Assembly (NCBI GenBank): GCA_042577985.1
Contig: JBHPDI010000001.1
Span: 2,334-66,333 of the forward strand
Reading direction: 5' to 3'
DNA: 64,000 bases
From: Halobacteriota archaeon
GTDB taxonomy: Archaea > Halobacteriota > UBA148
Of the stretch, positions 15,428-60,464 are shown in pieces. How positions within the stretch are numbered: the first letter of the stretch is position 1; every line of letters starts with the position of its first letter. The translations under genes and the position numbers were made by a program. The notes below the pieces were generated by a model. The model was not told the DNA's origin. It ran no database searches and worked only from the letters and a program-made list of their open reading frames with translations.

Positions 15428-15526
15428 GTTTTGGTAACTCTTCAGGGCTTACTTCTAAAAATCTTTGGGTGTTAACTTCAAGGGCTTTTAATGTGCTAAT
15501 ATACCAAAGTAATATATGGTGGGAGT

Positions 15527-16827: not shown

Positions 16828-16873
16828 TGAGTAAGAACAAGAGCAGAAAACATACCTATAGTAAGGTAAAAAT

Positions 16874-17116
16874 ATGGTGGCGGTATCTTAAGCAAAAATT
16901 ACTTCTAAAGTTCAAATTAATTCCCCAAAGGATATCAGATAGAAATATAATCTGTATGAAGGCGATAACGTTCTTCTGACCCTAACAGAAGACGAAATCA
17001 TCATGAAACACGGAATAGGTATCATTAGATTGTTGTGGAGACTCATAAAAAAAGAGGTGGCTGTGGACAAAGCATTGTATTTCTTCAAAAAACTGCGGCA
17101 GGAACGGAGAATATAG
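16874..17116 (+). pseudogene. AbrB/SpoVT-like small regulator or antitoxin gene interrupted by in-frame TAA (16889) and TAG (16940)
   Basis: The frame translates MVAVS*AKITSKVQINSPKDIR*KYNLYEGDNVLLTLTEDEIIMKHGIGIIRLLWRLIKKEVAVDKALYFFKKLRQERRI. The segment ITSKVQI-SPKDIR-x-KYNLYEGDNV fits the AbrB swapped-hairpin consensus and resembles the N-terminus of the PhoU-like protein at 5065. It is not in the ORF track because of the stop codons. Confidence 0.45.
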
Positions 17117-35240: not shown

Positions 35241-36542
35241 TTAAAATATTCGCACCACTGTGAAAGATAAACATAGTCCTGCAAGAGCAAATGCAATGCC
35301 AACTATTATACTTCTTTTGATATATGTGTAGTGTTTGCTATTATAAATTAAGTATTGAGTTATTAGTGCGCCACCAATCAATATCAAGGCAATATCTGCC
35401 ATGTATATGTAGGGATATTTATCTAATGCCCCAATGTATGATTGGTAGAACTGAGGTGCCACAACTATTGTTATTATAACCCAAGATGCAGAAAGATACA
35501 TGATTATTTTTGATTTCCACTCCTCAAATTCAAATCCTTCTAACAATAAAAAAATTGGAAGTATAAAACCTACATACCGTAGCTGACCGTATCCATAAAC
35601 AGGAAATATGCTAATCAATAAATAACCTGCAACTCCCCATGCTAAAAGTGCTGCAATTTTATCTTCATTTTTCTTATAATACGTCCACATAACCAGCAAC
35701 AATAGCGCAGTGACCACAAAATAACTGAGCTGCGCATATACAGAGATATCTCCCCATTTTATTCCTGGATAATGATGCCAATATATAGAACGAACATCGG
35801 TGTTCATCAAGCCGTATGTAATTTTAGTGTACCAATTCCATCCTATATAGGTTATTCCGCCTGCCAATAAGGGAAATATATTCTTGAATTTACGTTTGAA
35901 TATGAAGTCATATAAAAATAGTCCCCCTGCAACAACAAAGCTAAAACGAGTAAGAATACCTATAGAATACAAAAAGCAGCTTATCGTATAGTTTTCTTTT
36001 AAATAACAATAAACCAAAGCTAAGCATAAAACATAACCTAGGGGTTCAGATAAACCAATAGTTCCCCATGCCACAATAAAAGGATTTAGAGTAACTACAA
36101 TTGTGCATAATTTAATCTTTGTTTTTTCTTGAAAAAGTTCAGATGAGGCCAAATATGCAAGAATTGGAGTTGCTACAATTAAACAGAAACTATTGATTAG
36201 TAGCATTGACTCCTTAAAAGGAAAAATCAATGACAAAATCCTAATGCAAAAAGGATAAAATGGTGGGAATCCCACAAATTCTGGTATATAGTATCCATTT
36301 TGAGCTATTCCCAAATAAAACCAACCATCCCACACAGATGCCAAATCACTAAGGGCATCATGTGGGTAATAACCCCAACCCACGCCACCATAACCAAGCG
36401 TAGAAAAAACAATAAACATGCGAGCCAAATGCAAAAAAAAGGAAATGATTATTAAACCAAGTAAAAACTTATAGTCCTCTTGAAATTTCTTTTTTCCTTT
36501 CTCAATAACCCTGCTTATCATATGATTTATGGCATAAATCAT
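35241..36542 (-). CDS. Polytopic membrane protein, GT-C-like (DUF2029/GT87-type candidate)
   Basis: 433 aa with ~11 TM helices and aromatic-rich loops. Confidence 0.35.
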   Translation of the reverse strand: MIYAINHMISRVIEKGKKKFQEDYKFLLGLIIISFFLHLARMFIVFSTLGYGGVGWGYYPHDALSDLASVWDGWFYLGIAQNGYYIPEFVGFPPFYPFCIRILSLIFPFKESMLLINSFCLIVATPILAYLASSELFQEKTKIKLCTIVVTLNPFIVAWGTIGLSEPLGYVLCLALVYCYLKENYTISCFLYSIGILTRFSFVVAGGLFLYDFIFKRKFKNIFPLLAGGITYIGWNWYTKITYGLMNTDVRSIYWHHYPGIKWGDISVYAQLSYFVVTALLLLVMWTYYKKNEDKIAALLAWGVAGYLLISIFPVYGYGQLRYVGFILPIFLLLEGFEFEEWKSKIIMYLSASWVIITIVVAPQFYQSYIGALDKYPYIYMADIALILIGGALITQYLIYNSKHYTYIKRSIIVGIAFALAGLCLSFTVVRIF

Positions 36543-36565
36543 TTTTTAGTTACCCTTCCTTTCTG

Positions 36566-38221
36566 TTACCCTTCCTTTCTACCACATATTAAAATATCAC
36601 AACCTACTCCTAGTAACTCCAATCTTTTTTCTAATCCTTGTAAAAGAGCCAATAGCCTTTCAGAATTTAGTAAGGCGATAAAGGGCGATAAAACAAAAAG
36701 AGTTGAGACATGATAGACGTTGACGTCATTGTCTTTTAGAAGTTCTTTCAACTCCTTTGGACTGAATATTCTTAGATGTTGTTCAGCATAGTTCCGTCCC
36801 TTCCCAAAATGATCCCAAAAGAACTCTATTAGCGACCAGAGAGAGTTTGAATTGGGCATAGTAATGCTAACTCTCCCGCCTGGTTTTAGTATGCCTGACA
36901 CCTCGGCAATCATTCTCTCTGGCTCTGGTACATGTTCTATTATATTTCCCAATATTGCAACATCGAAAGTATGGGGCTTAAATGGCAAGTTTTGAGCATC
37001 TGCAACAATAAAATTGGTTTTTTCATTTCCTCTACTTCTCGCATATAGAACACCGGGGCGACTCAAGTCAAATCCAACTACTTTACCCCCAAATTCTGTG
37101 CACTTACGTGAAATCACACCAGACCCGCACCCCATATCTAATATGAGTTCATTTTGTCCAATTTTAGTGTTTTCAAATAAATTCTTTATCCTTCTTCTCT
37201 GCCAATGCCTCTGTATAAGAATATCTGAATTATATGCGATTTCATCAATGTCCCCCTGTACCTCTTCATATCTTTCCCTCAAACCTGTGCCAGTGATTTC
37301 TGAGATGAAAAAGCCCTTAAGCCCAAGACAGTCAACAGAAGTGTTCATAACTCTAACTATTACTGCAAATGCTACGCTAGCACTGATCGGAACTCCAATC
37401 AAACTAAACGTTTCTGATATCCCAAATTCTTGTATTCCAAGCCCAGCTGAGGTGAAAGGTACCATTGATAGGGCAGTAAGAAGTGGGTTTAAAAACAAAG
37501 ACTTCAATATACTGAGATCGATACCAAGTGCCCTGCCTATCATAAACCACTCAAAACCCCTTAAAATCCATCCTAAAAACGAGATTGAAAGAATCATGGG
37601 AATAAAGCCCCTAACCTTAGCTGATTCTTTCTGTACTTTCAGAATGAAGCTGCCTATTCTATGCTTCTCAAGTATCTTTCTGATTCTGTCTGGGATATGT
37701 ATGTTGAAGAAAGTTAAAGCAACCACAATAAGAAGTGCGACTATCATTAGACCAATCGAAAGAACTCGAAGGATATAGCCCGGTATGCCTATCAAGCTAA
37801 GTATCATTAACACAGCTACCGCGCCAAATACGACCTTTAATATGAGGTCGAACACATAGCAATAAGAGATAGTAGATAACGCAGCCTCTGGTTTAATCCC
37901 TCTTTTTTTAAGTGGAACCAATGAGTACATATATCCCGATCTTGCCGGAGTAAAATCTGAGACTATCATCCCACACATATGTGCCCAAAAAACTTGCCCC
38001 AGCCGTATTTTCTTATCCACCTTTTTAAAAATTATATGTAATCTGTATGCCATAATAAAATTGTTCAAGAAATAGGCTAATACAGCTAAAGTCAAAAATA
38101 GAAAATTAAGGTTTGTAAGAATTTCAGCGACTTCCTCGAAATCTGTGGTGTACACAATTGCTATTACAATTGCAATCCCAATGAGGATCTGGATTATAGT
38201 ATATCCTTTATTTTTCATCAC
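36566..38221 (-). CDS. Fusion protein: N-terminal flippase-like (UPF0104) membrane domain + C-terminal class I SAM-dependent methyltransferase
   Basis: 551 aa. Residues 1-330 contain TM helices with the FTPARSGYMYSL loop. Residues ~360-551 contain MTase motif I (LILDMGCGSGVIS) and post-I (VVGFDLS...). Confidence 0.6.
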   Translation of the reverse strand: MMKNKGYTIIQILIGIAIVIAIVYTTDFEEVAEILTNLNFLFLTLAVLAYFLNNFIMAYRLHIIFKKVDKKIRLGQVFWAHMCGMIVSDFTPARSGYMYSLVPLKKRGIKPEAALSTISYCYVFDLILKVVFGAVAVLMILSLIGIPGYILRVLSIGLMIVALLIVVALTFFNIHIPDRIRKILEKHRIGSFILKVQKESAKVRGFIPMILSISFLGWILRGFEWFMIGRALGIDLSILKSLFLNPLLTALSMVPFTSAGLGIQEFGISETFSLIGVPISASVAFAVIVRVMNTSVDCLGLKGFFISEITGTGLRERYEEVQGDIDEIAYNSDILIQRHWQRRRIKNLFENTKIGQNELILDMGCGSGVISRKCTEFGGKVVGFDLSRPGVLYARSRGNEKTNFIVADAQNLPFKPHTFDVAILGNIIEHVPEPERMIAEVSGILKPGGRVSITMPNSNSLWSLIEFFWDHFGKGRNYAEQHLRIFSPKELKELLKDNDVNVYHVSTLFVLSPFIALLNSERLLALLQGLEKRLELLGVGCDILICGRKEG

Positions 38222-38224
38222 ATC

Positions 38225-38938
38225 TTATTCCCCAAATAATGATTTTAAACTTAACCTTAATTTTAACACTACTATTGGATACTCTATAATAATTTTAATA
38301 TTTGATTTAGATAATCCCTTCGCCCTGTTCCTAAATATTATAGGTATCTCTTTCATTGTAAATTTTTTCTGCTTAATTTTAAAAAGAGTTTCTGGACCTA
38401 CACTATATCCTTTTGAAAAGTAATTATCTAAATTTATTGATCCCAAAACCTCTTTTCTGTAACACTTATAACCTCCACTACTATCTTTTACTTCTAGTCC
38501 TAATATTATCCTGTTATATATATTTGAGATGTGACTTAGTAAGATATTCTTAAAATGGCAGTTTATAGAGTTCCCACCTTTAACGTATCTAGAACCGATA
38601 ACAACATCATACTTTTTAATTTCTTCCAAAAACCTTGGGATATCCGCAGGGTCATGAGAAAAATCCGCGTCCATTTCAAAAATACAGTCTACATTCTGTG
38701 TTAAAGCGTATTTAAAGCCCGTAATACCTGCTGTCCCTCTCCCACGCTCATTACGATGAATAACATGAACCATGCCAGCATATTCTTTTGCCAATTTATC
38801 AGCAATTTGCCCTGTACTATCTGGAGAGTTGTCATCCACAATCAAAATGTTTACATTTTTATTTTTTAATATCTCTCTAACTATATCTTCAATGTTTTCT
38901 TTTTCATTGTATGTAGGAAGCATCACTATCGCTTTCAT
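38225..38938 (-). CDS. GT2 dolichyl/polyprenyl-phosphate hexose synthase (DPM1-like), soluble form
   Basis: 237 aa. Has KAIVMLPTYNEKENI...VDDNSPDSTG...DADFSH. Confidence 0.75.
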   Translation of the reverse strand: MKAIVMLPTYNEKENIEDIVREILKNKNVNILIVDDNSPDSTGQIADKLAKEYAGMVHVIHRNERGRGTAGITGFKYALTQNVDCIFEMDADFSHDPADIPRFLEEIKKYDVVIGSRYVKGGNSINCHFKNILLSHISNIYNRIILGLEVKDSSGGYKCYRKEVLGSINLDNYFSKGYSVGPETLFKIKQKKFTMKEIPIIFRNRAKGLSKSNIKIIIEYPIVVLKLRLSLKSLFGE

Positions 38939-38957: not shown

Positions 38958-39611
38958 TCACTTGACATTGCCCTTTTCCCAATCATTAAGAAATTGTCTT
39001 ATTCCAATATCTGTCAGAGGGTGTACAATCATTTTTTCAATAACATTAAAAGGAATAGTGGCAACATGTGCACCAGCTTTTGCTGCCTCTATCACATGCA
39101 ATGGATGTCGAATGCTCGCAACGATGACCTCAGTTTTTATATTGTAGTTATTGAAAATCGTTATAATCTCCCTTACCAAGTTCATTCCTTCATGACCTAT
39201 ATCATCTAACCGTCCAATGAATGGACTGACATAACTGGCACCCGACTTAGCGGCAAGCAATGCTTGATTCGCTGAGAAGATTAACGTCATATTCACTTTA
39301 ATATTTTCCATGTTTAATATTTTCGTGGCTTTTAACCCTTCTTTGGTTATGGGAATCTTTACAATAATATTTGGTGCCAATTTTGATAATTTCCTTGCCT
39401 CTTCGACCATCTCCTCTGTCCTTAAACTAATAACTTCAGCACTAATCGGTCCATTCACGATGCTACAAATATCCTTTAGCAGTTCCTGAAAATCCATCTC
39501 TTCTCTGGCTATTAGGGTTGGGTTAGTTGTCACTCCATCAAGTATCCCTAAACCATTAGCCTTCTTTATCTCTTCGATATTCGCAGTGTCAATAAAAAAT
39601 TTCATTTCCAA
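38958..39611 (-). CDS. tal: Transaldolase / fructose-6-phosphate aldolase (short TalC/Fsa type)
   Basis: 217 aa. Has [12 protein letters not shown]...GVTTNP...KIP, the characteristic Schiff-base Lys context. Confidence 0.8.
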
Positions 39612-40198
39612 TCACTATCCTCTAAAATCCATTTAGCAGCGGCATACAAATCGGAAGCGGTATAATCTATATTTTCATTTTTTTTCACGCTTTGAACACG
39701 CCCAGTTAGAACTAATATCGTTTTACAACCCATTTTAATCCCAGGTACTAGGTCTGTCATCTTATCCCCTATTACGTAAGATTCTTTTAAGTCAATATCC
39801 AAATCATGCGCTGCTTGCTTTAACATACCTGGATTTGGCTTTCTGCAATAACAACCAACATCTGGATGATGTGGACAATAATATATAGCATCTAAAAATG
39901 CTCCTTCTTTAGATAATTCCTTTTCCATCTTTTGATGAATATTTATCAGCATTTCTTCGGTAAAATATCCACGCACAACACCGGCTTGATTTGTAAAAAC
40001 TACAACCTTTAAACCAGCATTATTCAATAATTTAATTGCTTCCCCCACTCCTGATATAAGTTTAAACTCATTTGGATGACGAGGAGCAAACTGATTAGAC
40101 TCTGGATGAACTACTTCTTCATTGGTCGTCCCGTCCCTATCCAAGAATACTGCTCTATTCATTATCACCACCAAAAAGCTCTTTTTCAACAATGTCAC
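39602..40198 (-). CDS. gmhB: D-glycero-D-manno-heptose 1,7-bisphosphate phosphatase (HAD-IIIA, GmhB)
   Basis: [10 protein letters not shown] (HAD motif I) and VVFTNQAG, plus a Cys-rich Zn motif (CYCRKPNPG) typical of GmhB. The probable true start is MNRAVF at 40162. Confidence 0.7.
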
Positions 40199-40724
40199 AA
40201 ATAATATGCCCTATCGTAATGTGTGCCTCTTGAATTCTAGGAGTGTTGCTCGATGGAACCTTTATGCATAGATCAACAACTTTAGCAAGTTCACCTCTTC
40301 TACCAATAAAACCAATTGTTATTGCACCTTTTTCTTTGGCAGTTCTTATACCTTTTATAACATTTGGGGAACTACCGCTGGTGCTGATACCTATAACAAT
40401 GTCGCCACGCTCAACCAGTGCTTCGACTTGTCTTGAAAAAACATTATTATATCCATAGTCGTTTCCAATGGCTGTTAGAATGGATGTATTAGTAGTGAGT
40501 GCGATTGCTGGCAATCCCTTTCTTTCCAACATAAACTTGCTAACTAGCTCACACGCTATATGTTGAGCATCTGCTGCACTTCCACCGTTCCCAAATAAAA
40601 CAACTTTTTTTCCATTTTCATAAGCTTTAATAATCCTCTCACATATTTTCTCTATTTCAGCGCTTTGTTCACGAAGTTCCATTTTAATTCTTGCACCCTC
40701 CTCTAACATCTCACTTATCTTCAT
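40155..40724 (-). CDS. gmhA: Sedoheptulose-7-phosphate isomerase (SIS domain, GmhA)
   Basis: Has KVVLFGNGGSAADAQH...GISTSGSSPNVI. The start was trimmed to MKISEM; the track ORF extends to 40772. Confidence 0.8.
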   Translation of the reverse strand: MKISEMLEEGARIKMELREQSAEIEKICERIIKAYENGKKVVLFGNGGSAADAQHIACELVSKFMLERKGLPAIALTTNTSILTAIGNDYGYNNVFSRQVEALVERGDIVIGISTSGSSPNVIKGIRTAKEKGAITIGFIGRRGELAKVVDLCIKVPSSNTPRIQEAHITIGHIICDIVEKELFGGDNE

Positions 40725-41727
40725 CTCCAACCTTCCATATTTGTAATCCTTTTGTTTCAAATCCAAAATCAATTATCTTCACACCATATTCTTTGATTTT
40801 ATCTTCCACTTTGTACTTCTTGTCGTACTCGCAGAAGAGCAAAAGATGTCCTCCCCCTCCTGCACCAAGTATCTTTCCGCCAATTGCTCCGTTCTCTCTT
40901 GCAATTTCATATAGCTTGTCTATTTCAGGGTTAGTTATTTTATTTGATAGCCTTTTCTTTTCTATCCATCCTTGATGTAAAAGCTCACCAAATCTCCTAA
41001 GATTACCTTTAATCAGAGAATATTTCATTTCATCGGCAATACTCTTCAGATTATGCATTCCTTCTATCGAGTCTTTTTTTCTTTCTTTATATCTTTTTAC
41101 CAGATCAACTTGAATTTCACTCGACAGTCTTGTATCACCTGTATAACAGAGCAACAAGCGATATTGGAGTTCGTTTAAATTTTCAGAACGGAGTCGCAAC
41201 GGATTTACAATGACTTCATCCTTAAATTCGATATAGTTAAGTCCTCCAAATGTGGAAGCGTATTGATCCTGATATCCTCCTTCCATCTTTAACTCTTCTC
41301 TCTCTATATGATATGCGAGTTCTGCGACTTCGTATCCCTCCATGCAAATCTCAAGGAATTCTTTGAAAGCCCCTATCAAAGCCACTGTAACTGCAGATGA
41401 GATGCCCATTCCAGAGCCAGGCGGCATATCGCTATGTATTAATAAATCACATCCTTTATCAACACTAAACTCGTTTATTATTGCTTTTACTATGTCTAAT
41501 CTGCCATTGTATTCCAGTTCTTCTCCAATTTCAAAGCTTTTTTTTAATCTATAATCCAATGAATATATGTTAATTGCTTTATTTTTATTCGGTGTAATGG
41601 TGGCGTATGCATATTTATTTATGGTAGTGCTGATCACTGCGCCGCCATGTTCTCGACAGTAAGGTGGCACATCAGTTCCTCCACCTCCAAAACTGATCCG
41701 AAAAGGGGATCTACTCCTTATGACCAT
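40711..41727 (-). CDS. hddA: D-glycero-alpha-D-manno-heptose 7-phosphate kinase (GHMP kinase, HddA-type)
   Basis: 338 aa. Has RSPFRISFGGGGTD (GHMP N-terminal motif), PPGSGMGSSA (ATP loop), and gene context consistent with the heptose pathway. Confidence 0.7.
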   Translation of the reverse strand: MVIRSRSPFRISFGGGGTDVPPYCREHGGAVISTTINKYAYATITPNKNKAINIYSLDYRLKKSFEIGEELEYNGRLDIVKAIINEFSVDKGCDLLIHSDMPPGSGMGISSAVTVALIGAFKEFLEICMEGYEVAELAYHIEREELKMEGGYQDQYASTFGGLNYIEFKDEVIVNPLRLRSENLNELQYRLLLCYTGDTRLSSEIQVDLVKRYKERKKDSIEGMHNLKSIADEMKYSLIKGNLRRFGELLHQGWIEKKRLSNKITNPEIDKLYEIARENGAIGGKILGAGGGGHLLLFCEYDKKYKVEDKIKEYGVKIIDFGFETKGLQIWKVGDEDK

Positions 41728-42449
41728 ATTAGCTCCTCCAGCTCTTTTTTGATCCTCTCATAGTCTTCTGGTGTGCCCAAGTCTCGAAAGTAACAATTCG
41801 TTTTATATCCAAATATGCGATTTGTTTCCACTATCTTTGGAAAAAGGTCATATTCAATAGAAAATACCTCTTTGGCAGGCATATAACTGTATATGTCTAA
41901 GTCAAAGACATAAGCACCCGTGTTAATACTTCCAAAGTTTTTTTCACTTTTTTCTATAAATTTCGTAATTATGCAATGTTCATTAATTTCGACTGCTCCG
42001 TATCTATGGTTTTCTTCATTTATGTTAGCCAGTGATATTGTTGCTAAACCCTTTTTTTCTTCATGAAAACTCAAAAAATCAGTGAAATCTGTGAGGAGAT
42101 AAGTATCTCCATTCATAACCATGAATTTATCTTCATTAACAACATAGGATTCCGCGTTTTTTAGAGCCCCGCCAGTTCCCAAAGGTTTTTCCTCCTCCAC
42201 ATATTCAATGTGTACCTCAAACTTTTTCCCATTTCCAAAGTAATTCTTGATTTCATTACTCATATACCCAACAGAAAGAATAATGTCTCTTAGATTGAAC
42301 CTCTTTAGCAATTCGATTTGCCATTCCAAAAAGGGCTTTCCACATATTTGAGCCATAGGCTTTGGCTTATCACTAATAATTTTCCGAAGCCTTGTTCCAA
42401 GTCCACCAGCCAAGATTATTGTTTTCATAATAAGCCTATTTTTTTTCAA
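41718..42449 (-). CDS. hddC: D-glycero-alpha-D-manno-heptose 1-phosphate guanylyltransferase (HddC-type NTP transferase)
   Basis: 243 aa. Has IILAGGLGTRLR...KPKPM, and gene context consistent with the heptose pathway. Confidence 0.7.
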   Translation of the reverse strand: MKKNRLIMKTIILAGGLGTRLRKIISDKPKPMAQICGKPFLEWQIELLKRFNLRDIILSVGYMSNEIKNYFGNGKKFEVHIEYVEEEKPLGTGGALKNAESYVVNEDKFMVMNGDTYLLTDFTDFLSFHEEKKGLATISLANINEENHRYGAVEINEHCIITKFIEKSEKNFGSINTGAYVFDLDIYSYMPAKEVFSIEYDLFPKIVETNRIFGYKTNCYFRDLGTPEDYERIKKELEELIWS

Positions 42450-42604
42450 TTATGCTTTTTCAGTAGTTCCAAAATACCCCTCTTCCGAGTACGATTATAT
42501 ACTATACTTTCATGTCGGTTTGGCGGATTGTTTATGTGAGGATTGTGAATAAGCGGTAGAATGGATTGGAAAATCGTGTTCGAAACTCGGTGAATCAGGA
42601 AGTA

Positions 42605-43534
42605 CTATTTTAAGACTTTCTTTGCCGACTCAACTATTTTTCTTGTCGTTAAACTATACAACTCATACAACTCATTAGTATCGCCAGATTGTCCAAATCT
42701 ATCTCGAACTGCTACAAACTCCATCGGTACCACTTCATTACATACAATTGTTTCTGCTACTGCGCCACCTAATCCCCCCAAGATACTATGCTCTTCTACT
42801 GTAATGATTGCCCCGGTTTCACGGGCTGCTTTTATTATAATATCTGTATCAATAGGCTTAATCGTATGTATGTTGATCACCCTTGCATCAATCCCTTCTT
42901 TATTAAGGTCATCCGCTGCATCTAATGCCTTACTAACCATCGTTCCAGTTGCTATGATCGTCAAATCAGATCCTTCTCTCAGCGTTATACCTTTTCCCAA
43001 CTCGAATTGGTAATTCGAATCAAATAGGATTGGTGTTTTAATCCTACTCAAACGAACATAGAAAGGTCCTGGATAGTAAACGATTGCACATATTGCCTGT
43101 TTAGTCTCTTCTGCGTCGGCTGGCACAATAACCTGCATATTTGGAATGACTCGCATGAGGGCTATATCTTCTAGCGATTGATGGGAGGCACCGTCTGGAC
43201 CATTGCTCAGTCCTGCATGACTTACAACGATTTTTACATCCAGATTATCATGAGCTACTATACTTCTAATTTGTTCCCACGCTCTGCCAGTTGCAAAAAT
43301 CGCATATGAACTTGCAAAGGCTATTTTACCGGAATATGCAAGCCCAGCTGCCGTTCCTATCAAATCTTGCTCAGCACAACCAACATTAAAAAATCTCTTA
43401 GGGTATCTCTCTGCAAATTTACTCGTTTTTGTAGATGTTGAAAGATCTGCATCTAATACGACGATTCTTTCTTCTTTAGCACCTATCTCAGCTAAACACT
43501 CACCATAAGCATCACGTGTGGATTTTTCAATCAT
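42605..43534 (-). CDS. Transketolase, C-terminal (pyrimidine-binding) subunit
   Basis: 309 aa. GTAAGLA...VAHDN...GPDGASHQ matches the split-tkt B subunit. Confidence 0.8.
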   Translation of the reverse strand: MIEKSTRDAYGECLAEIGAKEERIVVLDADLSTSTKTSKFAERYPKRFFNVGCAEQDLIGTAAGLAYSGKIAFASSYAIFATGRAWEQIRSIVAHDNLDVKIVVSHAGLSNGPDGASHQSLEDIALMRVIPNMQVIVPADAEETKQAICAIVYYPGPFYVRLSRIKTPILFDSNYQFELGKGITLREGSDLTIIATGTMVSKALDAADDLNKEGIDARVINIHTIKPIDTDIIIKAARETGAIITVEEHSILGGLGGAVAETIVCNEVVPMEFVAVRDRFGQSGDTNELYELYSLTTRKIVESAKKVLK

Positions 43535-44382
43535 GCCAACACATCTCGTTTATAAATTGAATCCAATTCATTCAGTGCTTTTTCAATCTCTGTCGGAGTT
43601 GGTGCTCTTCCATGAAAATCTTTTATCCATTCCATAAAGGAAACACCTCTGCCCTTTATTGAATGAGCAATTATCACAGTTGGCTGCCCTCTCTTATTTT
43701 TTGAGGCATTAAATGCTTTTAAGACTTCTTTGACATCATAAGCATCCACCTCAATGACTCGCCAACCAAACGCATGCCATTTTTCTACGAGCGGTTCCAG
43801 ACTCATAATTTTCTCTGTTGGTCCGTCTATTTGCAGACCATTTCGATCTACAATAGCTACGAGATTATCTAAATTGTAATGAGCAGATGTCATTGCTGCC
43901 TCCCAGATTAGACCTTCGTCACACTCTCCATCCCCAAGGAGAACATAAACTCGGTAGTTTTTATTATCAATTTTTCCCGCCATAGCCATGCCATTTGCTA
44001 TCGAAAGTCCTTGACCTAATGAGCCTGAAGACATTTCTATCCCTGAGATTCTATTTCTATCAGGGTGTCCTTGGAGAACACTATTAACTCTTCGAAGATT
44101 TTCCAATTCTTCAAGCGGGATATAACCGGATTCCGCTAAAGCTGCATATAGTGTTGGGGCTGCGTGACCCTTGCTTAATACAAATCTATCTCTATCGGGC
44201 CAATTAGGATTTTTTGGATCATGGTGCATCACATAAAAATATAATGCTGTAATCACATCTACACATGACAATGACCCACCAGGATGCCCTGACCCAGCTT
44301 TTGAAATCATTTTTAAGACATGTACTCGAATTCTATATGCTTTTTCCAAAAGTCGTTTAATATCTTCTTCCCTTACTTTCAT
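43531..44382 (-). CDS. Transketolase, N-terminal (TPP-binding) subunit
   Basis: 283 aa. Has GSGHPGGSLS and LLGDGECDEG, the TPP-binding motif GDG-x-E. Confidence 0.8.
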   Translation of the reverse strand: MKVREEDIKRLLEKAYRIRVHVLKMISKAGSGHPGGSLSCVDVITALYFYVMHHDPKNPNWPDRDRFVLSKGHAAPTLYAALAESGYIPLEELENLRRVNSVLQGHPDRNRISGIEMSSGSLGQGLSIANGMAMAGKIDNKNYRVYVLLGDGECDEGLIWEAAMTSAHYNLDNLVAIVDRNGLQIDGPTEKIMSLEPLVEKWHAFGWRVIEVDAYDVKEVLKAFNASKNKRGQPTVIIAHSIKGRGVSFMEWIKDFHGRAPTPTEIEKALNELDSIYKRDVLA

Positions 44383-45412
44383 TCTCCTCTCTCGATATAG
44401 CCTCTTTTAATTCTTGTGTGGATAACAATGCCAAGCCCTTTTTATTCGCAGTCAATCCCGCGGCATAATTTGATAGTTTTGCTGCCTCTACTAGAGTTGC
44501 ACCTGTTGTTAGACCCAAAGCTAATACACTTGTAATCGTATCTCCAACACCTGTAACATCAAGTGGATTTTTTACAACCGGAGGAATAAAGGATACACTT
44601 TCATTTTGCTCAAAAACATAAAAACCTTCTTCTACCCATGTTATTAAAACTCCTTTGCATTCTAGCATGGTCATGATTCTTTGGCCCATATTTCGTATAC
44701 TTGTTTCGTTAATTGGTGTGACTCCAGTGGCATAACTTGCTTCTTTTCGATTTGCTCTAATCACGGTCACACCTTTGTATAATAAAAAATTTTCTTTTTT
44801 AGGGTCAACAACAATTTTTTTTCCATATTTCATCGTAATTTCGACTGCTGTGTCCACAAGTTTTGGCGTTATAACACCTCTACCATAATCAGAAATAACA
44901 ATTACATCCACATCATCAATTAATTCTTTTATATAATCTATAAGCATTATAGTGGTTTTAGAACCTATTTGTGCTTTGTCGGCTCTATCTAAACGAAGTA
45001 TTTGCTGTTCAAAAGTTCTAATCCTGGTTACCAAAGTTGTAGGCTCTTCTGTTCTAAAAATACCGTCTGTAGCTATGCCTCTATTCTTTAATTCGTTAAC
45101 CAAATAATCTCCCTCATGATCATCTCCAACAACACTCGCCACACAAATTTCTCCTCCCAGCGCATGAAGATTATTAACGGCATTTGCAGCTCCGCCTATC
45201 ACAAGAGACTCTGAGCTAATATCAACAACTGGTACTGGTGCTTCAGGCGAAATCCTGGTCACATCACCAATAATAAATTTGTCCACCATCACATCGCCTA
45301 TCACCAATATTTTCTTATTATTAAACTTGTCTACTATGTCAGATAGTTCTATTCTCTCACCTCTCTTTCTGCATAGTTTTGGAGTATTTAAATAAGTTAT
45401 GGTGTGCTGCAA
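44357..45412 (-). CDS. PfkB-family sugar kinase resembling HldE/RfaE domain I (D-beta-D-heptose 7-phosphate kinase)
   Basis: 351 aa. ILVIGDVMVDKFIIGDVTRISPEAPVPVV...GGAANAVNN closely parallels the RfaE kinase-domain N-terminus (VMVVGDVMLDRYWYG...ISPEAPVPVV...GGAANVA). Confidence 0.55.
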   Translation of the reverse strand: MQHTITYLNTPKLCRKRGERIELSDIVDKFNNKKILVIGDVMVDKFIIGDVTRISPEAPVPVVDISSESLVIGGAANAVNNLHALGGEICVASVVGDDHEGDYLVNELKNRGIATDGIFRTEEPTTLVTRIRTFEQQILRLDRADKAQIGSKTTIMLIDYIKELIDDVDVIVISDYGRGVITPKLVDTAVEITMKYGKKIVVDPKKENFLLYKGVTVIRANRKEASYATGVTPINETSIRNMGQRIMTMLECKGVLITWVEEGFYVFEQNESVSFIPPVVKNPLDVTGVGDTITSVLALGLTTGATLVEAAKLSNYAAGLTANKKGLALLSTQELKEAISREENESKGRRY

Positions 45413-49116: not shown

Positions 49117-49899
49117 TCATTTTTCCTGTTCCACAATCCTCGTTATTGCGGTGATGTTCCAAACATTTTCGTCAACATTTCCATTCAAATCTAAAAAGGG
49201 ACATATTTTCAAGACTTCAAAACCAGCACTTTCTAGATAGTATTTTAGTTCTTGAGGAAAATAGAATCTAACGACATGCTTTTCGTTAACTTCATTGAAG
49301 GTGCCCTCCTTTTTATTTAGAACGATTAATTTGTAGTTCACTTCACAGATATGGTCAAAAGCCCTTAAATTCGGAATTGCAACTCTTAAGATTCTCACTT
49401 TATCATTTTCGATCTCTTTTATTCTTTGTTCTGGAAGAGTCCTCATAACAGCTAATCCGTTCCAAACATCAAAAATAAAAATGCCGTTTGGTTTTAAATG
49501 CCTGCGTATATTATTTAATGCCTTAACTACGTCAGAATTTTTTGTTATGTACCCCATCACAGCAAACATAGCAATACATGCATCGAATTTTTCGTGTAAG
49601 CGGAAATCACGCAGGTCCATGACACGAAACTCTAGGTTTGCTATGTTCTTTGATTTTTCCTTTGCCTTTTCGATGATCATTTCTGAAATATCGGAGCCCA
49701 CAACGTTATAATTTCTTTTTGCCAATGGAATTGCGTGACCGCCAGTGCCACATCCTGCATCGAGTAGTGTGCTTATTGGTTTTTCAGAATATTTTCTAAA
49801 AATTTCCTCTACAAAGTCGCATTCTATTTCGTAGTTTTTATCTTGGTAAATCAAGTCATATACGTCGGCTAATTCTTCTTTAAAAACCATTAATTCCAT
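49117..49899 (-). CDS. Class I SAM-dependent methyltransferase
   Basis: 260 aa. LLDAGCGTGGHAIPLA is MTase motif I. Confidence 0.7.
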   Translation of the reverse strand: MELMVFKEELADVYDLIYQDKNYEIECDFVEEIFRKYSEKPISTLLDAGCGTGGHAIPLAKRNYNVVGSDISEMIIEKAKEKSKNIANLEFRVMDLRDFRLHEKFDACIAMFAVMGYITKNSDVVKALNNIRRHLKPNGIFIFDVWNGLAVMRTLPEQRIKEIENDKVRILRVAIPNLRAFDHICEVNYKLIVLNKKEGTFNEVNEKHVVRFYFPQELKYYLESAGFEVLKICPFLDLNGNVDENVWNITAITRIVEQEK

Positions 49900-51061
49900 C
49901 CCCTTTTCGAATATCTTTTATTTTGCTTATGATATAATCTAACTCATTCTTCCCAAGTAAAGGACTGCTAGGTATGTAAAATCCATTTTTAGCCACATAA
50001 TTGGCAACAGGGCATTCATCCTCTCTGACCCAACCTTTCTGAATAAAGATCTCCTGCATATTATAAGGAATAAAAGCTTCACGTGTTTCTATACCGTCTC
50101 TAGTCAATTTCTTCATGACGAACTCTCTTGGGAAATTAAATCCCTCCTGAAGAACTATATTGTACATCCAATAAACATTCTTAGCATAGTTTTTCTCAAC
50201 TGGTAGTCGTAAGCCAGAAATGTCTCTAAGGTTTTCGTCATAATAATGGGCAATCTTACGCTTTTTATCAATTATTTCATCAATTTTTTTAAGTTGGGCG
50301 CAACCAATAGCAGCTTGGATATTTGCCATGCGGTAACCAAATCCGATATCCGTGTGCATAAATTTATTATTTGTTCCGAAAGCTAAACTCTTTAAGGAGC
50401 GTACTTTATCGGCAATTTCAGCATTGTTTGTAGTTACCATGCCCCCTTCTCCCGTGGTGATAATTTTATTCGCATAAAAACTGAAGCACCCGACATCACC
50501 TAAAGAACCGACTTTTATTCCTTTGTACAGAGCACCGTGAGCTTCTGCACAGTCCTCAACGACATATAGCCCGTATTTCTTTGCTATCTTCAAAATTGGA
50601 TCCATGTCAACAGGATGACCATAAATATGCACAGCCAAAATTGCTTTAGTTTTTTCATTAATTTTTTCTTCAATTAACGCAGGGTTGATATTCCATGTGT
50701 CAGGTTCTATATCAATTGGAATGGGCTTGGCGCCTTGATATAGGACAGCAAAAAAGGTTGCCATATTAGTGAAGGAGGAAACCAAAATTTCATCGGCATG
50801 GCCGATTCCTAATGATGCTAATGCGAGATGCAATGCGGAAGTACCACTGTTTGTAGCAATACCATAAGCACAGCCAGAATAATGTGAAAAATCCTCCTCA
50901 AATTTATCTATATATTGTCCATATAGACCTGAAATCGCACCGTCTCCAAGTGCGGATAAAACGTATTTAGTTTCCTCTTCATCTAAAAATGGCTGAGATA
51001 CTGGAATCTTCATTTGTCTAAGATTCCTCCTCTCGTGTGTTCCTGTTTCGGATTCTCTCAT
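49880..51061 (-). CDS. DegT/DnrJ/EryC1/StrS-family NDP-sugar aminotransferase (PLP-Lys present)
   Basis: GCFSFYANKIITTGEGG, with the canonical Lys. The likely true start is MKIPVSQPF at 51013. Confidence 0.75.
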   Translation of the reverse strand: MRESETGTHERRNLRQMKIPVSQPFLDEEETKYVLSALGDGAISGLYGQYIDKFEEDFSHYSGCAYGIATNSGTSALHLALASLGIGHADEILVSSFTNMATFFAVLYQGAKPIPIDIEPDTWNINPALIEEKINEKTKAILAVHIYGHPVDMDPILKIAKKYGLYVVEDCAEAHGALYKGIKVGSLGDVGCFSFYANKIITTGEGGMVTTNNAEIADKVRSLKSLAFGTNNKFMHTDIGFGYRMANIQAAIGCAQLKKIDEIIDKKRKIAHYYDENLRDISGLRLPVEKNYAKNVYWMYNIVLQEGFNFPREFVMKKLTRDGIETREAFIPYNMQEIFIQKGWVREDECPVANYVAKNGFYIPSSPLLGKNELDYIISKIKDIRKGDGINGF

Positions 51062-51459
51062 TTGTTTGCTACCCGATTACTATCTGATATTAATTTCTCT
51101 GTGAGCCTGTACGTATCTTTTTCGTAATTTTTACCTCCTCTGGGTCCCCTTGTGAATACAAGAAACTCTGAATCTTCCAGAGCAATTAAAGCGTGTTTTT
51201 CCATTGGAGGTGTGAAGACTAAATTTCCCGCCTTAATAATCGCAGTCTCAATTTCCTCTTCACCGATTTGTGTTAAAAGTTTTAGACAACCTTTAAGGAC
51301 AAAAGTATATTGCACGGATTCTTTGTGATAATGGTTCCCCCGGACTGCCCCTTTTTTTGACGATATAAGAGTGATATATTCAATAACCTCTTTTTCCAGG
51401 ATATCTGTTATTATACCCCTTTCATCTTCAAATGCATACTTCTTATTGGTTATCTTCAT
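51058..51459 (-). CDS. FdtA/WxcM-like NDP-4-keto-6-deoxyhexose 3,4-ketoisomerase (small cupin)
   Basis: 133 aa. FEDERGII...RGNHYHK matches the FdtA His-containing cupin core. Confidence 0.6.
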   Translation of the reverse strand: MKITNKKYAFEDERGIITDILEKEVIEYITLISSKKGAVRGNHYHKESVQYTFVLKGCLKLLTQIGEEEIETAIIKAGNLVFTPPMEKHALIALEDSEFLVFTRGPRGGKNYEKDTYRLTEKLISDSNRVANK

Positions 51460-51479
51460 ATAGTTATCCTACCTATAAT

Positions 51480-52706
51480 TCAGTCTATAATGTGTGGTTT
51501 TGGAATAGGAATAATAAATTTTCCTCCAGCATCTTTATAATTTTTTAAATTCTTTATTATTTCATCAGCAAAATTCCAAGCTAACAAGAGGGCATAATCT
51601 GGCTTTTGTTTAATCAATTCAGAATCTGGCAAAACAGGTATATGTGTTCCTGGAGTATATTTTCCTATTTTCAGAGTTGATTTTTCGGTAACAAAATCAA
51701 GGATTTCAGGACCAATTCTGCAATAGTTCAATAAAGTCATCCCTTTTGCAGGTGCACTCACTCCGGCTATTCGTTTGCCTTCGTGTTTTATTGATTTTAA
51801 CATCCAGATAAGCTCCTCGCGATTGTGCTGCACAGATGTTGCGAAATTTTTGAGTGTATCGTGCTCATATATTCTCTTCTCTTTTTCAAGTTCAAGGAAT
51901 TTATCGACATTGCTAGAGATCGGATAGGCGTTTTTTCTTGCTACAAAATAACGCAAAGATCCTCCGTGGATATCTACTTTTTCAACGTCAAATATCTCCA
52001 TTCCAAATGTATGGAATAATATGCTCACGGGTTTAACCGATAGGTAGGATAGGTGTTCATGGTATATGGTGTCATACTCCAAATTTTCTATTAAATCAAC
52101 TAAGTAAGGCGCTTCAAAAATAAACACTCCATCATCGTCTAATAATATATCTAAAGCTCTTACTAGAGAATGTAGATCATTAATATGAGCAACAACATTT
52201 GTTCCAGTTACAACTTTCGCCTTCTTTCGTTCTTTTGTGATTGTACGTGATAAAGCTTCACTAAAAAAATCATGAATCGTTTCTATACCCCTTTTTATAG
52301 CTATTTCACCTATATTTCTTACTGGTTCAACGCCTAGTACATTAACAATACCTTGATTCTTGAAACCCTGGAGTAATACTCCAACGTTGCTTCCAATATC
52401 AACTACCAAATCCTTCTGCGTAAGACGAAATCTTGAAACTGCTTCCTGGGCGAGTGAATGAAAGTGTGCAACTCCTGTTTTAGTCGTGGATGACTCGTAG
52501 GGATAGGTCTCGTTGAACAACATCTCGGGTGGAACAACATAACCTATCTGGACTAGAGAGCAGCCATTACAGATAAAAGCCTCCAAAGGATAATATACTT
52601 CTGGCTCCGTCAATCTATTAGGGGATAAGAAATCATCCGCGGTGGGCGTGTGTCCTAGATCTAAGAATTTCGTTAAGCTTTTACTGTGGCAAATTCTACA
52701 CTGCAT
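51480..52706 (-). CDS. TylCIII-family NDP-hexose C-methyltransferase (Zn-ribbon N-terminus + SAM MTase + C-methyltransferase C-terminal domain)
   Basis: 408 aa. Has an N-terminal C-x2-C...C-x2-C motif (CRICHS...CNGCS), the mid-domain DIGSNVG, and the family's typical length and architecture. Confidence 0.6.
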   Translation of the reverse strand: MQCRICHSKSLTKFLDLGHTPTADDFLSPNRLTEPEVYYPLEAFICNGCSLVQIGYVVPPEMLFNETYPYESSTTKTGVAHFHSLAQEAVSRFRLTQKDLVVDIGSNVGVLLQGFKNQGIVNVLGVEPVRNIGEIAIKRGIETIHDFFSEALSRTITKERKKAKVVTGTNVVAHINDLHSLVRALDILLDDDGVFIFEAPYLVDLIENLEYDTIYHEHLSYLSVKPVSILFHTFGMEIFDVEKVDIHGGSLRYFVARKNAYPISSNVDKFLELEKEKRIYEHDTLKNFATSVQHNREELIWMLKSIKHEGKRIAGVSAPAKGMTLLNYCRIGPEILDFVTEKSTLKIGKYTPGTHIPVLPDSELIKQKPDYALLLAWNFADEIIKNLKNYKDAGGKFIIPIPKPHIID

Positions 52707-52751
52707 TTTAAGGTCTCATAATCAAATTTGTTTTTGTTTCAATTTGTGTTA

Positions 52752-57788: not shown

Positions 57789-60464
57789 TTGGGCAATAAA
57801 AAAAGAAAAAAGAAGTCTAGGGCGAAACCCAAAGCAGCGAAGAAAGAGGTACTAAAGATAACAAAAAGAGAAGCCGAGATCACACAGCTTCGCTCATCAC
57901 TAGAAAATTTTGAGAAGGAATATGAGCAAGGTAAGATCTCCAAGGCAGCATATGAAAAACTTAAGGCAGAGTATGAGGATGATGTTAAGAGGATTGAACA
58001 TATCTCATTTTTTGAGAAGATCCGGCAGAAAATATCGATTTATACCTTATTGTTAATCACCATAGTTTCTCTCGCTTTCTACATTAGGGCCGTTTTACCA
58101 TATGATAACGTGTTCCTTGAAGACATGGTTCGATTTGGTGGAAATGACCCTTGGTATCACATGCGTCTCATAGAAAACACTATTCGTAATTTTCCCAACA
58201 GGATTTTTTTCGACCCATACACTCAATTTCCAGTCGGCGAAGTTCTCCATTTTGGACCACTGTACGATCAAATGGTTTCTTTAATTGCCTTACTCGTTGG
58301 GTTGGGGTCGCCCAGTCTGCATACCATAGAGGTTATAGGAGCCTATTTCCCAGCAGTTCTAGGAGCATTGGTCGTTTTACCTGTCTACTTCATTGGGAAG
58401 GTAGTATTCGATAGGCGAGTAGGCCTGTTATCTGCACTTGTCGTTGCTATCCTGCCAGGACAATTCTTATCACGATCGCTCTTGGGATTCACAGATCACC
58501 ATGTTGCAGAGACACTTTTTAGCACTCTGACGATTTTGTTTTTCATGATAGCGATGAGAAGGGCAGAGGGTATAAAGTTCGAGCATGTATTGAAGAAAGA
58601 GTGGCATATCTTGAGGGCCCCGCTGGCGTATTCAATATTAGCCGGGCTTATGTTTGGGTGCTATCTGCTATGTTGGTATGGGGCTTTGTTGTTTGCATTC
58701 ATAATTGCCGTATTCGTCATCATTCAGCACATCATTGACTATCTACAGAACAAATCAACTGACTACCTGTGCATCGTTGGTGGAATCACATTTGTGATCC
58801 CACTGATAATTGTCGCACCAATTGTTATTCAAGGTCTTGGTCAGTATTCATGGTTACACATATTTTCATTCATTATAGGTATCTTGGCGTTTTTATTATT
58901 AAGCGGCATCCCCAAGGTAATGGGCAGTAAGGACATCGATCGGATTTATTATCCGGTGATTTTAATCGGAATTGGCTCGATAGGTGTAGCAAGCGTTTAT
59001 CTGATTAATCCCTCTCTTTTCCACTCGATGTTGAGCTCGTTTGGCATATTCTGGCCGGAGGGGGGCATATTAACCGTCGCAGAGGCGACATCGATCTTTT
59101 ATAGAGGCGGTCAGTTTTCCTTACAGTGGGTATGGGATAACTTTACGGCGTGCTTTTATGCTACTCTCATCGCTCTTTTGATGGTCGGATATAGAATCTT
59201 TAAAGAACGGAAGCCAGAGGACACATTGCTAGGGGTATGGAGCATCATCATGTTCCTTGCAATCGTTGGACAGAACAGGTTTGCATACTACTTCGTGGTG
59301 AATGTCGCAATTCTCTCTGGATATTTCGGCGTCAAAATGTTGGAATGGGGTGGCTTGGGTAAATTGTATGAGGACTTCCAAAGAAGGGTGAAGGACTCTA
59401 GCGATATTGGTTATTTCGTTTCCAGATATGTAAAACTAGTTCACATATTTGTCGTGGTACTGGTTGTTTTGATTCTCATATATCCTAATGTCAACATAAC
59501 GATGGGATCGGGCCCAGGTGCAGCAAGGTGGACTGGTGGGCCCAGTATGGACTGGTACTCTGCCTTGGACTGGATGAGATATAATACACCTGATCCTGGC
59601 CTTGACTATTATGAGCTCTACGAAGCACCTGCACATGGAGAGACATACCAATACCCCGAATCTGCCTACGGCGTGATGAGCTGGTGGGACTATGGTCACT
59701 GGATCACCAGAATAGCGCACAGGATACCGAATGCTAATCCATTTCAGTCAGGCATAGGCGGTCCCATAGGAAGTGATAATCCAGGAGCTTGCGTTTTTTT
59801 CATCTCAAAAACTGAAGCTGAAGCAAATGAAGTTGCCGACGAGCTTGGTGTGAAATACGTAATAAGTGACTTCATGATGGCTGACGTATGGAACGCATTT
59901 TATAACAAGTTTGGGGCGATGACCGTTTGGGCTGGCGATATTGAGGGATATTATGTACAAGTTAATGATACGGGGGAAGGACCCAGACTTATACCTAGCC
60001 CCAAATATTTCAGCACAATGGAAGCCAGATTGCACATATTTGATGGCACAGGAGTACAACTTAGTGAAGACATCTATCTGGAGCCTTTACATCATTATAG
60101 GCTTGTCCATGAGTCTCCTAGCACTATAATCTCTATAGGTGGGCAAGAAGTAAAGTTTGTCAAGATTTTTGAATATGTTCCTGGGGCGAAGATAGTTGGA
60201 AGTGCACCTGAAGGTACTAACGTTTTAATCAACGTTGAAATTCAGACCAATCAAGGTCGAACGTTCAGTTATACTCAAACTACAACTTCTAATGGAAGCT
60301 ATGAGTTCATAGTTCCGTACTCTACAGAGGGTCCTATGGTTGGTGGAACACAGTTTGGCACGATGCCAGTGGGACCATACACTATAATAATTGGAGATAT
60401 GATGGGGGAAGTTAGAGTCACAGAGGATCAAGTGATTACTGGAGAAACTATCCTGTTGACTTAG
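57789..60464 (+). CDS. aglB: Archaeal oligosaccharyltransferase AglB (STT3 family) with an unusual ~70-aa basic/helical N-terminal extension
   Basis: 891 aa. Has the WWDYGHWI catalytic motif, an early-loop DPWYH acidic motif, 13 TM helices and a C-terminal soluble domain. The N-terminus MGNKKRKKKSRAKPKAAKKEV...GKISKAAYEKLKAEY precedes TM1 with no internal Met. Confidence 0.85.
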   Translation: MGNKKRKKKSRAKPKAAKKEVLKITKREAEITQLRSSLENFEKEYEQGKISKAAYEKLKAEYEDDVKRIEHISFFEKIRQKISIYTLLLITIVSLAFYIRAVLPYDNVFLEDMVRFGGNDPWYHMRLIENTIRNFPNRIFFDPYTQFPVGEVLHFGPLYDQMVSLIALLVGLGSPSLHTIEVIGAYFPAVLGALVVLPVYFIGKVVFDRRVGLLSALVVAILPGQFLSRSLLGFTDHHVAETLFSTLTILFFMIAMRRAEGIKFEHVLKKEWHILRAPLAYSILAGLMFGCYLLCWYGALLFAFIIAVFVIIQHIIDYLQNKSTDYLCIVGGITFVIPLIIVAPIVIQGLGQYSWLHIFSFIIGILAFLLLSGIPKVMGSKDIDRIYYPVILIGIGSIGVASVYLINPSLFHSMLSSFGIFWPEGGILTVAEATSIFYRGGQFSLQWVWDNFTACFYATLIALLMVGYRIFKERKPEDTLLGVWSIIMFLAIVGQNRFAYYFVVNVAILSGYFGVKMLEWGGLGKLYEDFQRRVKDSSDIGYFVSRYVKLVHIFVVVLVVLILIYPNVNITMGSGPGAARWTGGPSMDWYSALDWMRYNTPDPGLDYYELYEAPAHGETYQYPESAYGVMSWWDYGHWITRIAHRIPNANPFQSGIGGPIGSDNPGACVFFISKTEAEANEVADELGVKYVISDFMMADVWNAFYNKFGAMTVWAGDIEGYYVQVNDTGEGPRLIPSPKYFSTMEARLHIFDGTGVQLSEDIYLEPLHHYRLVHESPSTIISIGGQEVKFVKIFEYVPGAKIVGSAPEGTNVLINVEIQTNQGRTFSYTQTTTSNGSYEFIVPYSTEGPMVGGTQFGTMPVGPYTIIIGDMMGEVRVTEDQVITGETILLT

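Follow-up and report, generated by a model that had tools for sequence, protein, structure and literature searches.

The 64,000-nucleotide stretch analysed here, referred to below as the window, belongs to a metagenome-assembled genome (MAG) of a Halobacteriota archaeon (assembly GCA_042577985.1, contig JBHPDI010000001.1, positions 2,334 to 66,333). It is archaeal, as judged from the 3' part of an archaeal 23S rRNA, a 5S rRNA and an archaeal RNase P RNA, and most of it, from about 12 to 61 kb, is occupied by one large glycosylation island of about 50 kb. Within this island, eight packed open reading frames (ORFs) on the minus strand, at positions 38958-45412, encode transaldolase, a split transketolase, four enzymes of heptose activation and a PfkB-type kinase. 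A first, sequence-only reading of the window had described these ORFs as a self-contained heptose module. All eight are found exactly where that reading had placed them, and Pfam profiles, NCBIfam profiles with curated equivalog cutoffs and scores against proteins of solved structure support the gene identities that it had proposed.

Read in the direction of transcription, the block begins with a divergent HldA-like PfkB kinase (44357..45412), assigned by TIGR02198 and by its resemblance to Burkholderia cenocepacia HldA (4E84) and placed below in a group called clade A. It is followed by the N-terminal, thiamine diphosphate (ThDP)-binding half of transketolase (TktN, 43531..44382; PF00456, 203 bits) and by its C-terminal half, which carries the pyrimidine-binding and C-terminal domains (TktC, 42605..43534; PF02779, PF02780). 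Next come an HddC-like sugar-1-phosphate nucleotidyl(guanylyl)transferase (41718..42449; PF00483, Yersinia HddC), a GHMP kinase of the HddA type (40711..41727; NF049969 as best model, solved heptose kinases), the sedoheptulose-7-phosphate isomerase GmhA (40155..40772; SIS_2 in Pfam and the phosphoheptose isomerase models), a GmhB-type HAD-IIIA heptose-1,7-bisphosphate 7-phosphatase (39602..40198; NF006506 above cutoff) and, finally, a transaldolase of the short TalC/MipB type (Tal, 38958..39611; TIGR00875 and solved transaldolases). Neighbouring genes overlap or abut throughout, with start and stop codons overlapping between block genes, apart from a single gap of 155 nt that separates TktC from HddC. 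Purifying selection acts on each of the eight genes, with ratios of nonsynonymous to synonymous substitution (dN/dS) of 0.12-0.26 between the window and its closest relative, locus L001.

Homologues of GmhA, GmhB and PfkB begin later, and for this reason the starts called for these three genes probably lie 12-25 codons upstream of the real ones; the real starts of GmhB and GmhA probably lie near 40162 and 40724, respectively. The called start of the PfkB gene (45340-45412 region) is a TTG about 21 codons upstream of the start of its homologues. The methionine of these homologues lines up with an ATA codon that has GGTGA before it, and the real start is uncertain.

The central-metabolism enzymes of the block look wholly canonical. 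Against the full-length transketolase model NF004559, TktN scores 347 bits over model positions 11-281 and TktC 310 bits over positions 318-624. Their sum of 657 bits exceeds the full-length cutoff of 488, and all the Pfam domains are there. The ORFs earlier named tktB and tktA each encode one half, C-terminal and N-terminal respectively, of a single split transketolase. Many archaeal transketolases share 62-72% identity with TktN. Tal reaches 332 bits with TIGR00875 (cutoff 246) and is, by eye from the alignments, 62-65% identical to the Thermotoga maritima and Bacillus subtilis enzymes. An identity as fructose-6-phosphate aldolase (FSA) was rejected, since true transaldolases score 254-278 bits (1VPX 278, 3R8R 272, Thermoplasma acidophilum 3S0C 254) and FSAs 114-131. 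In addition, Tal retains the Phe of its SPFIGR motif, the position at which Phe or Tyr separates transaldolases from FSAs.

In bacteria, heptose is activated by an alpha route made up of GmhA, HddA, GmhB and HddC or by a beta route made up of GmhA, HldA or HldE, GmhB and HldC. The four consecutive genes at 39602-42449 are of all the alpha-route types, and for each of them the heptose model ranks first or nearly first among the NCBIfam matches. GmhB alone passes its cutoff (NF006506, 185.7 bits, cutoff 178); it is 91% identical in L001, with a dN/dS of 0.20. GmhA falls short of both of its models (NF010546, 196 bits, cutoff 276; TIGR00441, 190 bits, cutoff 209) and contains the HxxxE and QEAH...H motifs, which we take to be the zinc-binding and catalytic residues of Escherichia coli GmhA. 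The GHMP kinase scores 287 bits with the HddA model NF049969 (cutoff 600), against 97 for mevalonate kinase and 77 for galactokinase. Against solved structures, it reaches 227-244 bits with the heptose kinases 3K85, WcbL (4USK/4USM) and 4N3O, 88 with fucokinase and 62 with mevalonate kinase. Mevalonate kinase, galactokinase and fucokinase were rejected as its identity on these scores, in line with its earlier description as a heptose kinase. Mutation of R13, D22, S118-120, Q162 or D163 of WcbL abolishes activity (PMC4691232). Six of these seven validated residues (R13, D22, S119, S120, Q162 and D163) are identical in the window enzyme, the S118 position being Ile. The HddC-like protein is below cutoff both for HddC (166 bits, cutoff 300) and for mannose-1-phosphate guanylyltransferase (180 bits). 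Among solved structures, it comes closest to Yersinia HddC (5XHW/6JQ8, 137 bits), other nucleotidyltransferases, including mannose-1-phosphate guanylyltransferases, scoring 105-121. Thus, the block resembles the bacterial alpha route in having the same four enzyme families in one operon, with a GHMP kinase matching the heptose kinases and a nucleotidyltransferase closest to a solved HddC. However, it differs in its archaeal host, in the embedded Tkt and Tal, in the extra PfkB-type kinase, in having three of the four enzymes below the curated equivalog cutoffs and in an acceptor system that is likely archaeal, with an AglB island and a glycosyltransferase resembling dolichyl-phosphate (Dol-P)-sugar synthases.

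The arrangement PfkB-TktN-TktC(-Tal-GmhA...) is conserved in relatives, in 11 loci of about eight lineages, and is therefore far beyond chance. L001 (PfkB identity 87%) has the same eight-gene order and the same three downstream genes. In L002 and L163 (54-55%), the order is PfkB-TktN-TktC-GHMP-GmhA-GmhB-Tal, and in L164 and L170 (54%) it is PfkB-TktN-TktC-(65-aa ORF)-GmhA-Tal. L165 (47%) carries PfkB-TktN-TktC-Tal-GmhB-x-HldC-(HldC/PfkB fusion)-GmhA, and L167 (50%) carries PfkB-HldC-TktN-TktC-Tal-GmhA-GmhB with a gene of the heptosyltransferase family GT9 nearby. The junction of the Tkt/Tal core with HldC in L167, beside GT9, ties Tkt and Tal directly to heptose synthesis. In L168 and L089 (42-47%), PfkB-TktN-TktC-Tal precedes a second, divergent Tkt-like pair with epimerases on its flanks, and GHMP-NTP_transferase-DegT(-GmhA) comes last. 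In L041 (42%), the contig ends after PfkB-TktN-TktC, and L166, from Hadarchaeales (46%), has PfkB-GHMP-GmhA-GmhB without Tkt or Tal. The linkage is not a general property of HldA loci: among the PfkB profile matches listed, which are almost all bacterial, have at most 47% identity and come mostly from bacterial, or DPANN, reference genomes, Tkt is adjacent in one of 80 control loci (L089 and L041 were also found in this way). Of the best PfkB homologues, no fewer than 24 lie on the same contig as one of the best TktN homologues, as judged from identical contig sizes, many of these contigs being 2-9 kb long. Transaldolase is of the short type in most loci, and a 302-304-aa type (35-36% identity) fills its slot in L002, L164 and L170; this exchange within the same slot points to selection for transaldolase activity itself. 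We found no description in the literature of a conserved cassette of Tkt, Tal and heptose genes.

Several features of these loci deserve separate mention. The 65-aa ORF of L164 (12769-12966) and L170 (12775-12972) lies between TktC and GmhA, in the slot held by the GHMP kinase in relatives, and is probably the remnant of a lost HddA; L164 and L170 are also devoid of GmhB. The second and far more divergent TktN/TktC-like pair occurs within the canonical-Tkt clusters of L089 (7129-8921), L165 (18649-20777) and L168 (14350-16181). SDR epimerase/dehydratase genes lie on either side of it, it carries a fused NUDIX domain in L165, and it may be a ThDP enzyme that moves a two-carbon unit onto a nucleoside diphosphate (NDP)-keto-sugar, giving a branched or extended sugar. 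L165 also encodes a 508-aa fusion (15425-16951) with the reverse of the HldE domain order, the cytidylyltransferase-like part preceding the PfkB part. The kinase part is very divergent (TIGR02198, 136 bits), and the fusion adjoins a separate HldC-like gene.

Archaea generally lack Tkt and Tal (PMC5241800; PMC3102087) and, where these are missing, make pentoses via the reverse ribulose monophosphate pathway (PMC5241800); among ten haloarchaea, just one has Tkt/Tal genes (PMC3102087). Hosts without these enzymes have no pool of sedoheptulose 7-phosphate (S7P), and hence the cassette brings its own split Tkt together with Tal. Tkt converts fructose 6-phosphate (F6P) and ribose 5-phosphate (R5P) to S7P and erythrose 4-phosphate, which Tal then combines with F6P to give S7P and glyceraldehyde 3-phosphate (GAP). 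From this textbook chemistry, the net supply would be 2 F6P + R5P -> 2 S7P + GAP, with need of neither xylulose 5-phosphate nor an epimerase, which would explain why Tkt and Tal both travel with GmhA. The idea of a dedicated S7P supply for heptose activation, put forward from the window alone, is thus strengthened by the relatives, since the linkage is kept across many divergent loci.

GmhA would then isomerise S7P to the 7-phosphate of D-glycero-D-manno-heptose, the HddA-type GHMP kinase would yield the alpha-1,7-bisphosphate, and GmhB would strip the 7-phosphate, as suggested by family membership and conserved catalytic residues; the product of the block appears to be GDP-heptose. On the whole, we consider it fairly probable that the eight genes are a self-sufficient heptose-activation operon within an archaeal glycosylation island. 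Several points weigh against this conclusion. With GmhA, HddA and HddC below their equivalog cutoffs, we infer their exact substrates. GmhB is closer to beta-type phosphatases, the alpha-specific model NF050049 giving just 97 bits. By its scores, HddC is barely separated from the mannose-1-phosphate guanylyltransferases, and it is missing from the block in L002, L163 and L166. No heptosyltransferase of family GT9 is present in the window. Finally, a pure alpha route leaves the role of the PfkB kinase unexplained.

This kinase belongs to the HldA family. It scores 303.7 bits with TIGR02198 (rfaE_dom_I, cutoff 345) and 79 with the ribokinase model, the solved structure nearest to it is B. cenocepacia HldA (158 bits; fructokinase, 51), and its lid motif RISPEAPVPVV is identical to that of the B. 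cenocepacia enzyme. A ribokinase identity was rejected on these scores, and decay to a pseudogene on a dN/dS of 0.19 (against L001) and intact catalytic motifs. The window thus holds two non-homologous heptose-type kinases, a GHMP kinase of the HddA type and a PfkB kinase grouping with RfaE domain I, as had been noticed at the outset. The absence of an HldE adenylyltransferase domain, also noticed then, extends to the whole 64-kb window, where a hidden Markov model (HMM) of nine HldC sequences run against 569 six-frame ORFs found neither HldC nor HldE domain II (best E=1.3). The sequence-only reading had added that the N-terminus of the kinase closely parallels the RfaE/HldE kinase domain and that the kinase would follow the beta-anomer route. 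The family stands; however, the parallel is looser than supposed, because the protein belongs to a divergent clade that lies below the TIGR02198 cutoff and has replaced the HldA residues K149, E165, R275 and H290, which leaves the assumed beta-anomer activity uncertain.

In a neighbour-joining (NJ) tree, the Tkt-linked kinases fall into two groups. Clade B (L167, L165, L168, L089) is nested among canonical, HldC-adjacent HldA, and clade A (the window, L001, L002, L163, L164/L170, L166) is a separate long branch, to which sequences P0001-P0033 were added by identity. A single origin of all Tkt-linked kinases was found in 0 of 100 NJ bootstraps and is unsupported, NJ on long branches being weak evidence. 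With TIGR02198, the window kinase and its clade A relatives score 263-305 bits, L165 343 and canonical HldA from DPANN and Omnitrophota 378-392. For clade A, no locus shows HldC at a distance of up to 10 kb, and at five of the seven loci a GHMP kinase (HddA) lies adjacent. Residues were compared, in B. cenocepacia numbering, between 32 clade A kinases and 25 canonical or clade B/HldC-linked ones, including B. cenocepacia HldA itself. The two groups have 43 conserved positions in common, and clade A keeps the lid ISPEAPVP, GGAAN, R151, Q158, R161, DY..G, NxxE and GxGD motifs. Clade A carries the replacements K149V, E165A/S and K197R at positions where all 25 comparison kinases have the original residue, as well as R275W (R in 22 of 25) and H290F (H in 21 of 25). 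In addition, T236-P237 has become R-T/A (TPN to R(T/A)N), A304 has become V (GAGD to GVGD), and E100, R219, W259 and V289 are invariants of its own. No description of an HddA-paired divergent HldA clade was found in the literature. As compared with the beta route, the window shares an HldA-family PfkB, GmhA and a beta-type-like GmhB, and L167 and L165 combine the Tkt/Tal core with HldC; however, the window is devoid of HldC and HldE domain II, and its kinase clade has lost canonical HldA residues and pairs with the non-homologous HddA.

Judged from its sequence, the kinase is certainly derived from HldA and functional, yet not a canonical HldA. It most likely still phosphorylates the product of GmhA as an HldA-like heptose-7-phosphate beta-kinase, at a chance that we put just above even. 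In that case, a second, beta-configured branch would open, with a nucleotidyltransferase encoded outside the window. This beta-kinase step is the least certain of the scheme, because clade A has remodelled otherwise invariant HldA residues, and action on another sugar, a caveat raised from the start, is a live possibility. A kinase with a new function would use another acceptor, such as a heptose or heptulose without the 7-phosphate or some other intermediate of the cassette, or another phosphoryl donor, and so carry out a new step alongside HddA. The replacement of conserved residues together with the gain of new invariants, the TIGR02198 scores below those of canonical HldA, the pairing with HddA and not HldC, and purifying selection, which excludes decay, speak for such a change. 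So do K149 and R275, which seem to map to ligand-contact regions on alignment to E. coli ribokinase: K149 and R151 would align with lid positions contacting the sugar (ribose), and R275 would fall between ADP-contacting residues, which is a lead only. On the other side, HldA is by far the best family and structural match, the motifs listed above are retained, and clade A always lies beside GmhA. Moreover, with T236R and R275W at the ends of adjacent strands, a charge could have been moved in compensation, function being left unchanged, and part of the difference may be lineage drift, as the comparison set is mostly bacterial. All considered, we judge a new function possible but less probable than not. 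Equally tentative is a wider proposal, in which the Tkt-linked clade A kinase is a neofunctionalised HldA descendant with an undescribed phosphorylation beside HddA in an archaeal heptose or higher-sugar pathway and, at the same time, the Tkt/Tal-GmhA-kinase core acts as a mobile “metabolic patch”, by which heptose glycans have been installed repeatedly in lineages without a pentose-phosphate pathway.

The product of the cassette as a whole could also be other than a heptose. In lincosamide biosynthesis, the transaldolase LmbR builds octulose 8-phosphate from R5P, and LmbN, LmbP, LmbK and LmbO, which are GmhA-, HddA-, GmhB- and HddC-like, activate it (PMC12945683). A higher-carbon sugar nucleotide such as GDP-octose is thus a formal rival, as a transaldolase is embedded there with the same four kinds of enzymes, and the window operon matches this documented list in its transaldolase, isomerase, GHMP kinase, phosphatase and nucleotidyltransferase, the shortfall of GmhA, HddA and HddC from their equivalog cutoffs adding room for another substrate. 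However, the lincosamide cluster is a bacterial secondary-metabolite cluster with neither transketolase nor PfkB kinase, and the window lies in a surface-glycosylation context. The tightly linked transketolase would be superfluous for an octose route, Tal is of a generic housekeeping type that is exchanged for another type in relatives, the heptose-contacting WcbL residues are conserved in the GHMP kinase, and L167 joins the Tkt/Tal core to HldC and GT9, both hallmarks of heptose. We therefore hold GDP-octose to be very improbable. Slightly less credit still can be given, in our estimate, to the view that Tkt and Tal are mere housekeeping pentose-phosphate genes, serving for instance erythrose 4-phosphate supply or pentose interconversion and uncoupled from the heptose genes. 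Their canonical look, with TktN so close to other archaeal transketolases, agrees with this view, and they may well be the sole genomic copies. Nevertheless, about eight lineages, with kinase identities as low as 42% and with varied flanks, keep the PfkB-Tkt-Tkt(-Tal-GmhA) order, start and stop codons overlap, one Tal type replaces the other inside the same slot, the block always lies amid glycan genes, and the control HldA loci are without the linkage.

The island that surrounds the heptose-activation operon encodes mannose-1-phosphate and glucose-1-phosphate nucleotidyltransferases, a UDP-glucose dehydrogenase, RmlA, RmlB, a C-methyltransferase, two DegT aminotransferases, two B12-radical-SAM enzymes (SAM, S-adenosylmethionine), a Wzx-type flippase, about ten GT2/GT4 glycosyltransferases, a GDP-mannose-4,6-dehydratase (TIGR01472, 419.5 bits, cutoff 415) and, on the plus strand, the AglB oligosaccharyltransferase (57789..60464; AglB_core-like, STT3 and AglB_L1 domains). 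Three minus-strand genes follow Tal directly. The first, which begins 19 nt after it, encodes a small, soluble GT2 enzyme resembling Dol-P-sugar synthases (38225..38938; PF00535; Pyrococcus furiosus Dol-P-mannose synthase 5MLZ, 116 bits), a candidate lipid-phosphate-heptose synthase. The second encodes a flippase-like domain of the LPG_synthase_TM, MprF type fused to a SAM methyltransferase (36566..38221; PF03706 and Methyltransf_11; TIGR00374, 86 bits, cutoff 43). The third encodes a 433-aa polytopic membrane protein (35241..36542), possibly a glycopolymer transferase, with a weak match of 38 bits to the AZOBR_p60025 cell-surface glycopolymer family and no match in a Pfam search. All three (35241-38938) are conserved in L001, and small PpgS-like GT2s flank the module in L163 and L164.

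These three genes are a possible delivery route for lipid-phosphate heptose. More speculatively, heptose would reach the glycan by way of the GT2 enzyme, the flippase-like protein and the polytopic membrane protein, by the GT2/GT4 enzymes of the island, or by both, and delivery would end in an AglB-dependent N-glycan or another surface glycan. In Haloferax volcanii, the AglD/AglR/AglS route makes Dol-P-mannose in the cytoplasm, flips it and transfers the sugar outside. The three window genes resemble this set in comprising a Dol-P-sugar synthase-like enzyme, a flippase-like protein and a polytopic membrane protein. However, there is no sequence-level orthology, in the window a methyltransferase is fused to the flippase-like domain, whose type is MprF/LPG_synthase_TM, and the sugar would be heptose.

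The sequence-only reading had held heptoses to be essentially undescribed in archaeal glycoconjugates. This was overstated, because both a heptose in an N-glycan and archaeal heptose-activating enzymes are already known. Indeed, D-glycero-D-galacto-heptose is an established part of the Thermoplasma acidophilum N-glycan (PMC11407970; PMC12448462), and archaeal enzymes making ADP-, CDP- and UDP-beta-heptose were reported in 2024, their physiological role being left open (commentaries PMC11461863; PMC11573728). Thermoplasma and Cuniculiplasma thus show that archaeal N-glycans do contain heptose, and HddA homologues (57-59% identity) are common in Thermoplasmata genomes; however, these organisms belong to another phylum, and the D-glycero-D-galacto isomer would need an extra epimerisation. 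Thermoplasma also has a housekeeping non-oxidative pentose-phosphate pathway, so that it would need no Tkt/Tal patch. As a whole, then, the first observation of the module is confirmed and its interpretation partly supported, the novelty of the heptose and the simple parallel with HldE not having held.

In the window, heptose-activation genes are physically joined to an archaeal AglB glycosylation island. After the 2024 cross-kingdom work on NDP-heptoses, the question arose why archaea have genes for heptose enzymes. To this the block offers a concrete answer, and from it surface glycans containing heptose are predicted for uncultured Halobacteriota. The block also illustrates a principle, that of a glycan cassette carrying two enzymes of central metabolism for a precursor, S7P, which host metabolism otherwise lacks. 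Furthermore, it defines a conserved, selected and divergent clade of HldA-like kinases, a tractable target in the search for a new activity or a dual-anomer pathway.

Further genes of the island may bear on the sugars made there. On the minus strand, at 49117-53801, the GDP-mannose-4,6-dehydratase is followed by a C-methyltransferase, a LegC/PseC-like aminotransferase and a methyltransferase, a set that could modify GDP-mannose or GDP-heptose, for example to 6-deoxy or amino heptoses. The B12-binding radical-SAM enzymes (19006-20427 and 30822-32354 in the window) recur beside the heptose module in L001, L002, L163 and L168, which suggests radical methylation or rearrangement of a sugar. Among the island GT2 genes lies also an Fe-S protein resembling the beta subunit of F420 hydrogenase/dehydrogenase (27870-29135).

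Outside the island, the stretch at 9.6-12.1 kb, which is low in GC and poor in ORFs, contains nothing but small genes of ordinary kinds and is free of repeats. An Rfam tRNA match (1721-1842; 47.7 bits, 122 nt) lies between the 23S and 5S rRNA genes. ARAGORN reported no tRNA over the whole window, and this element is probably an intron-containing archaeal tRNA in the spacer of the rRNA operon. Finally, in a DnaG-type (Toprim) primase encoded at 8324-9586, the peptide VVEGGADRR(K/T)K occurs four times in tandem.

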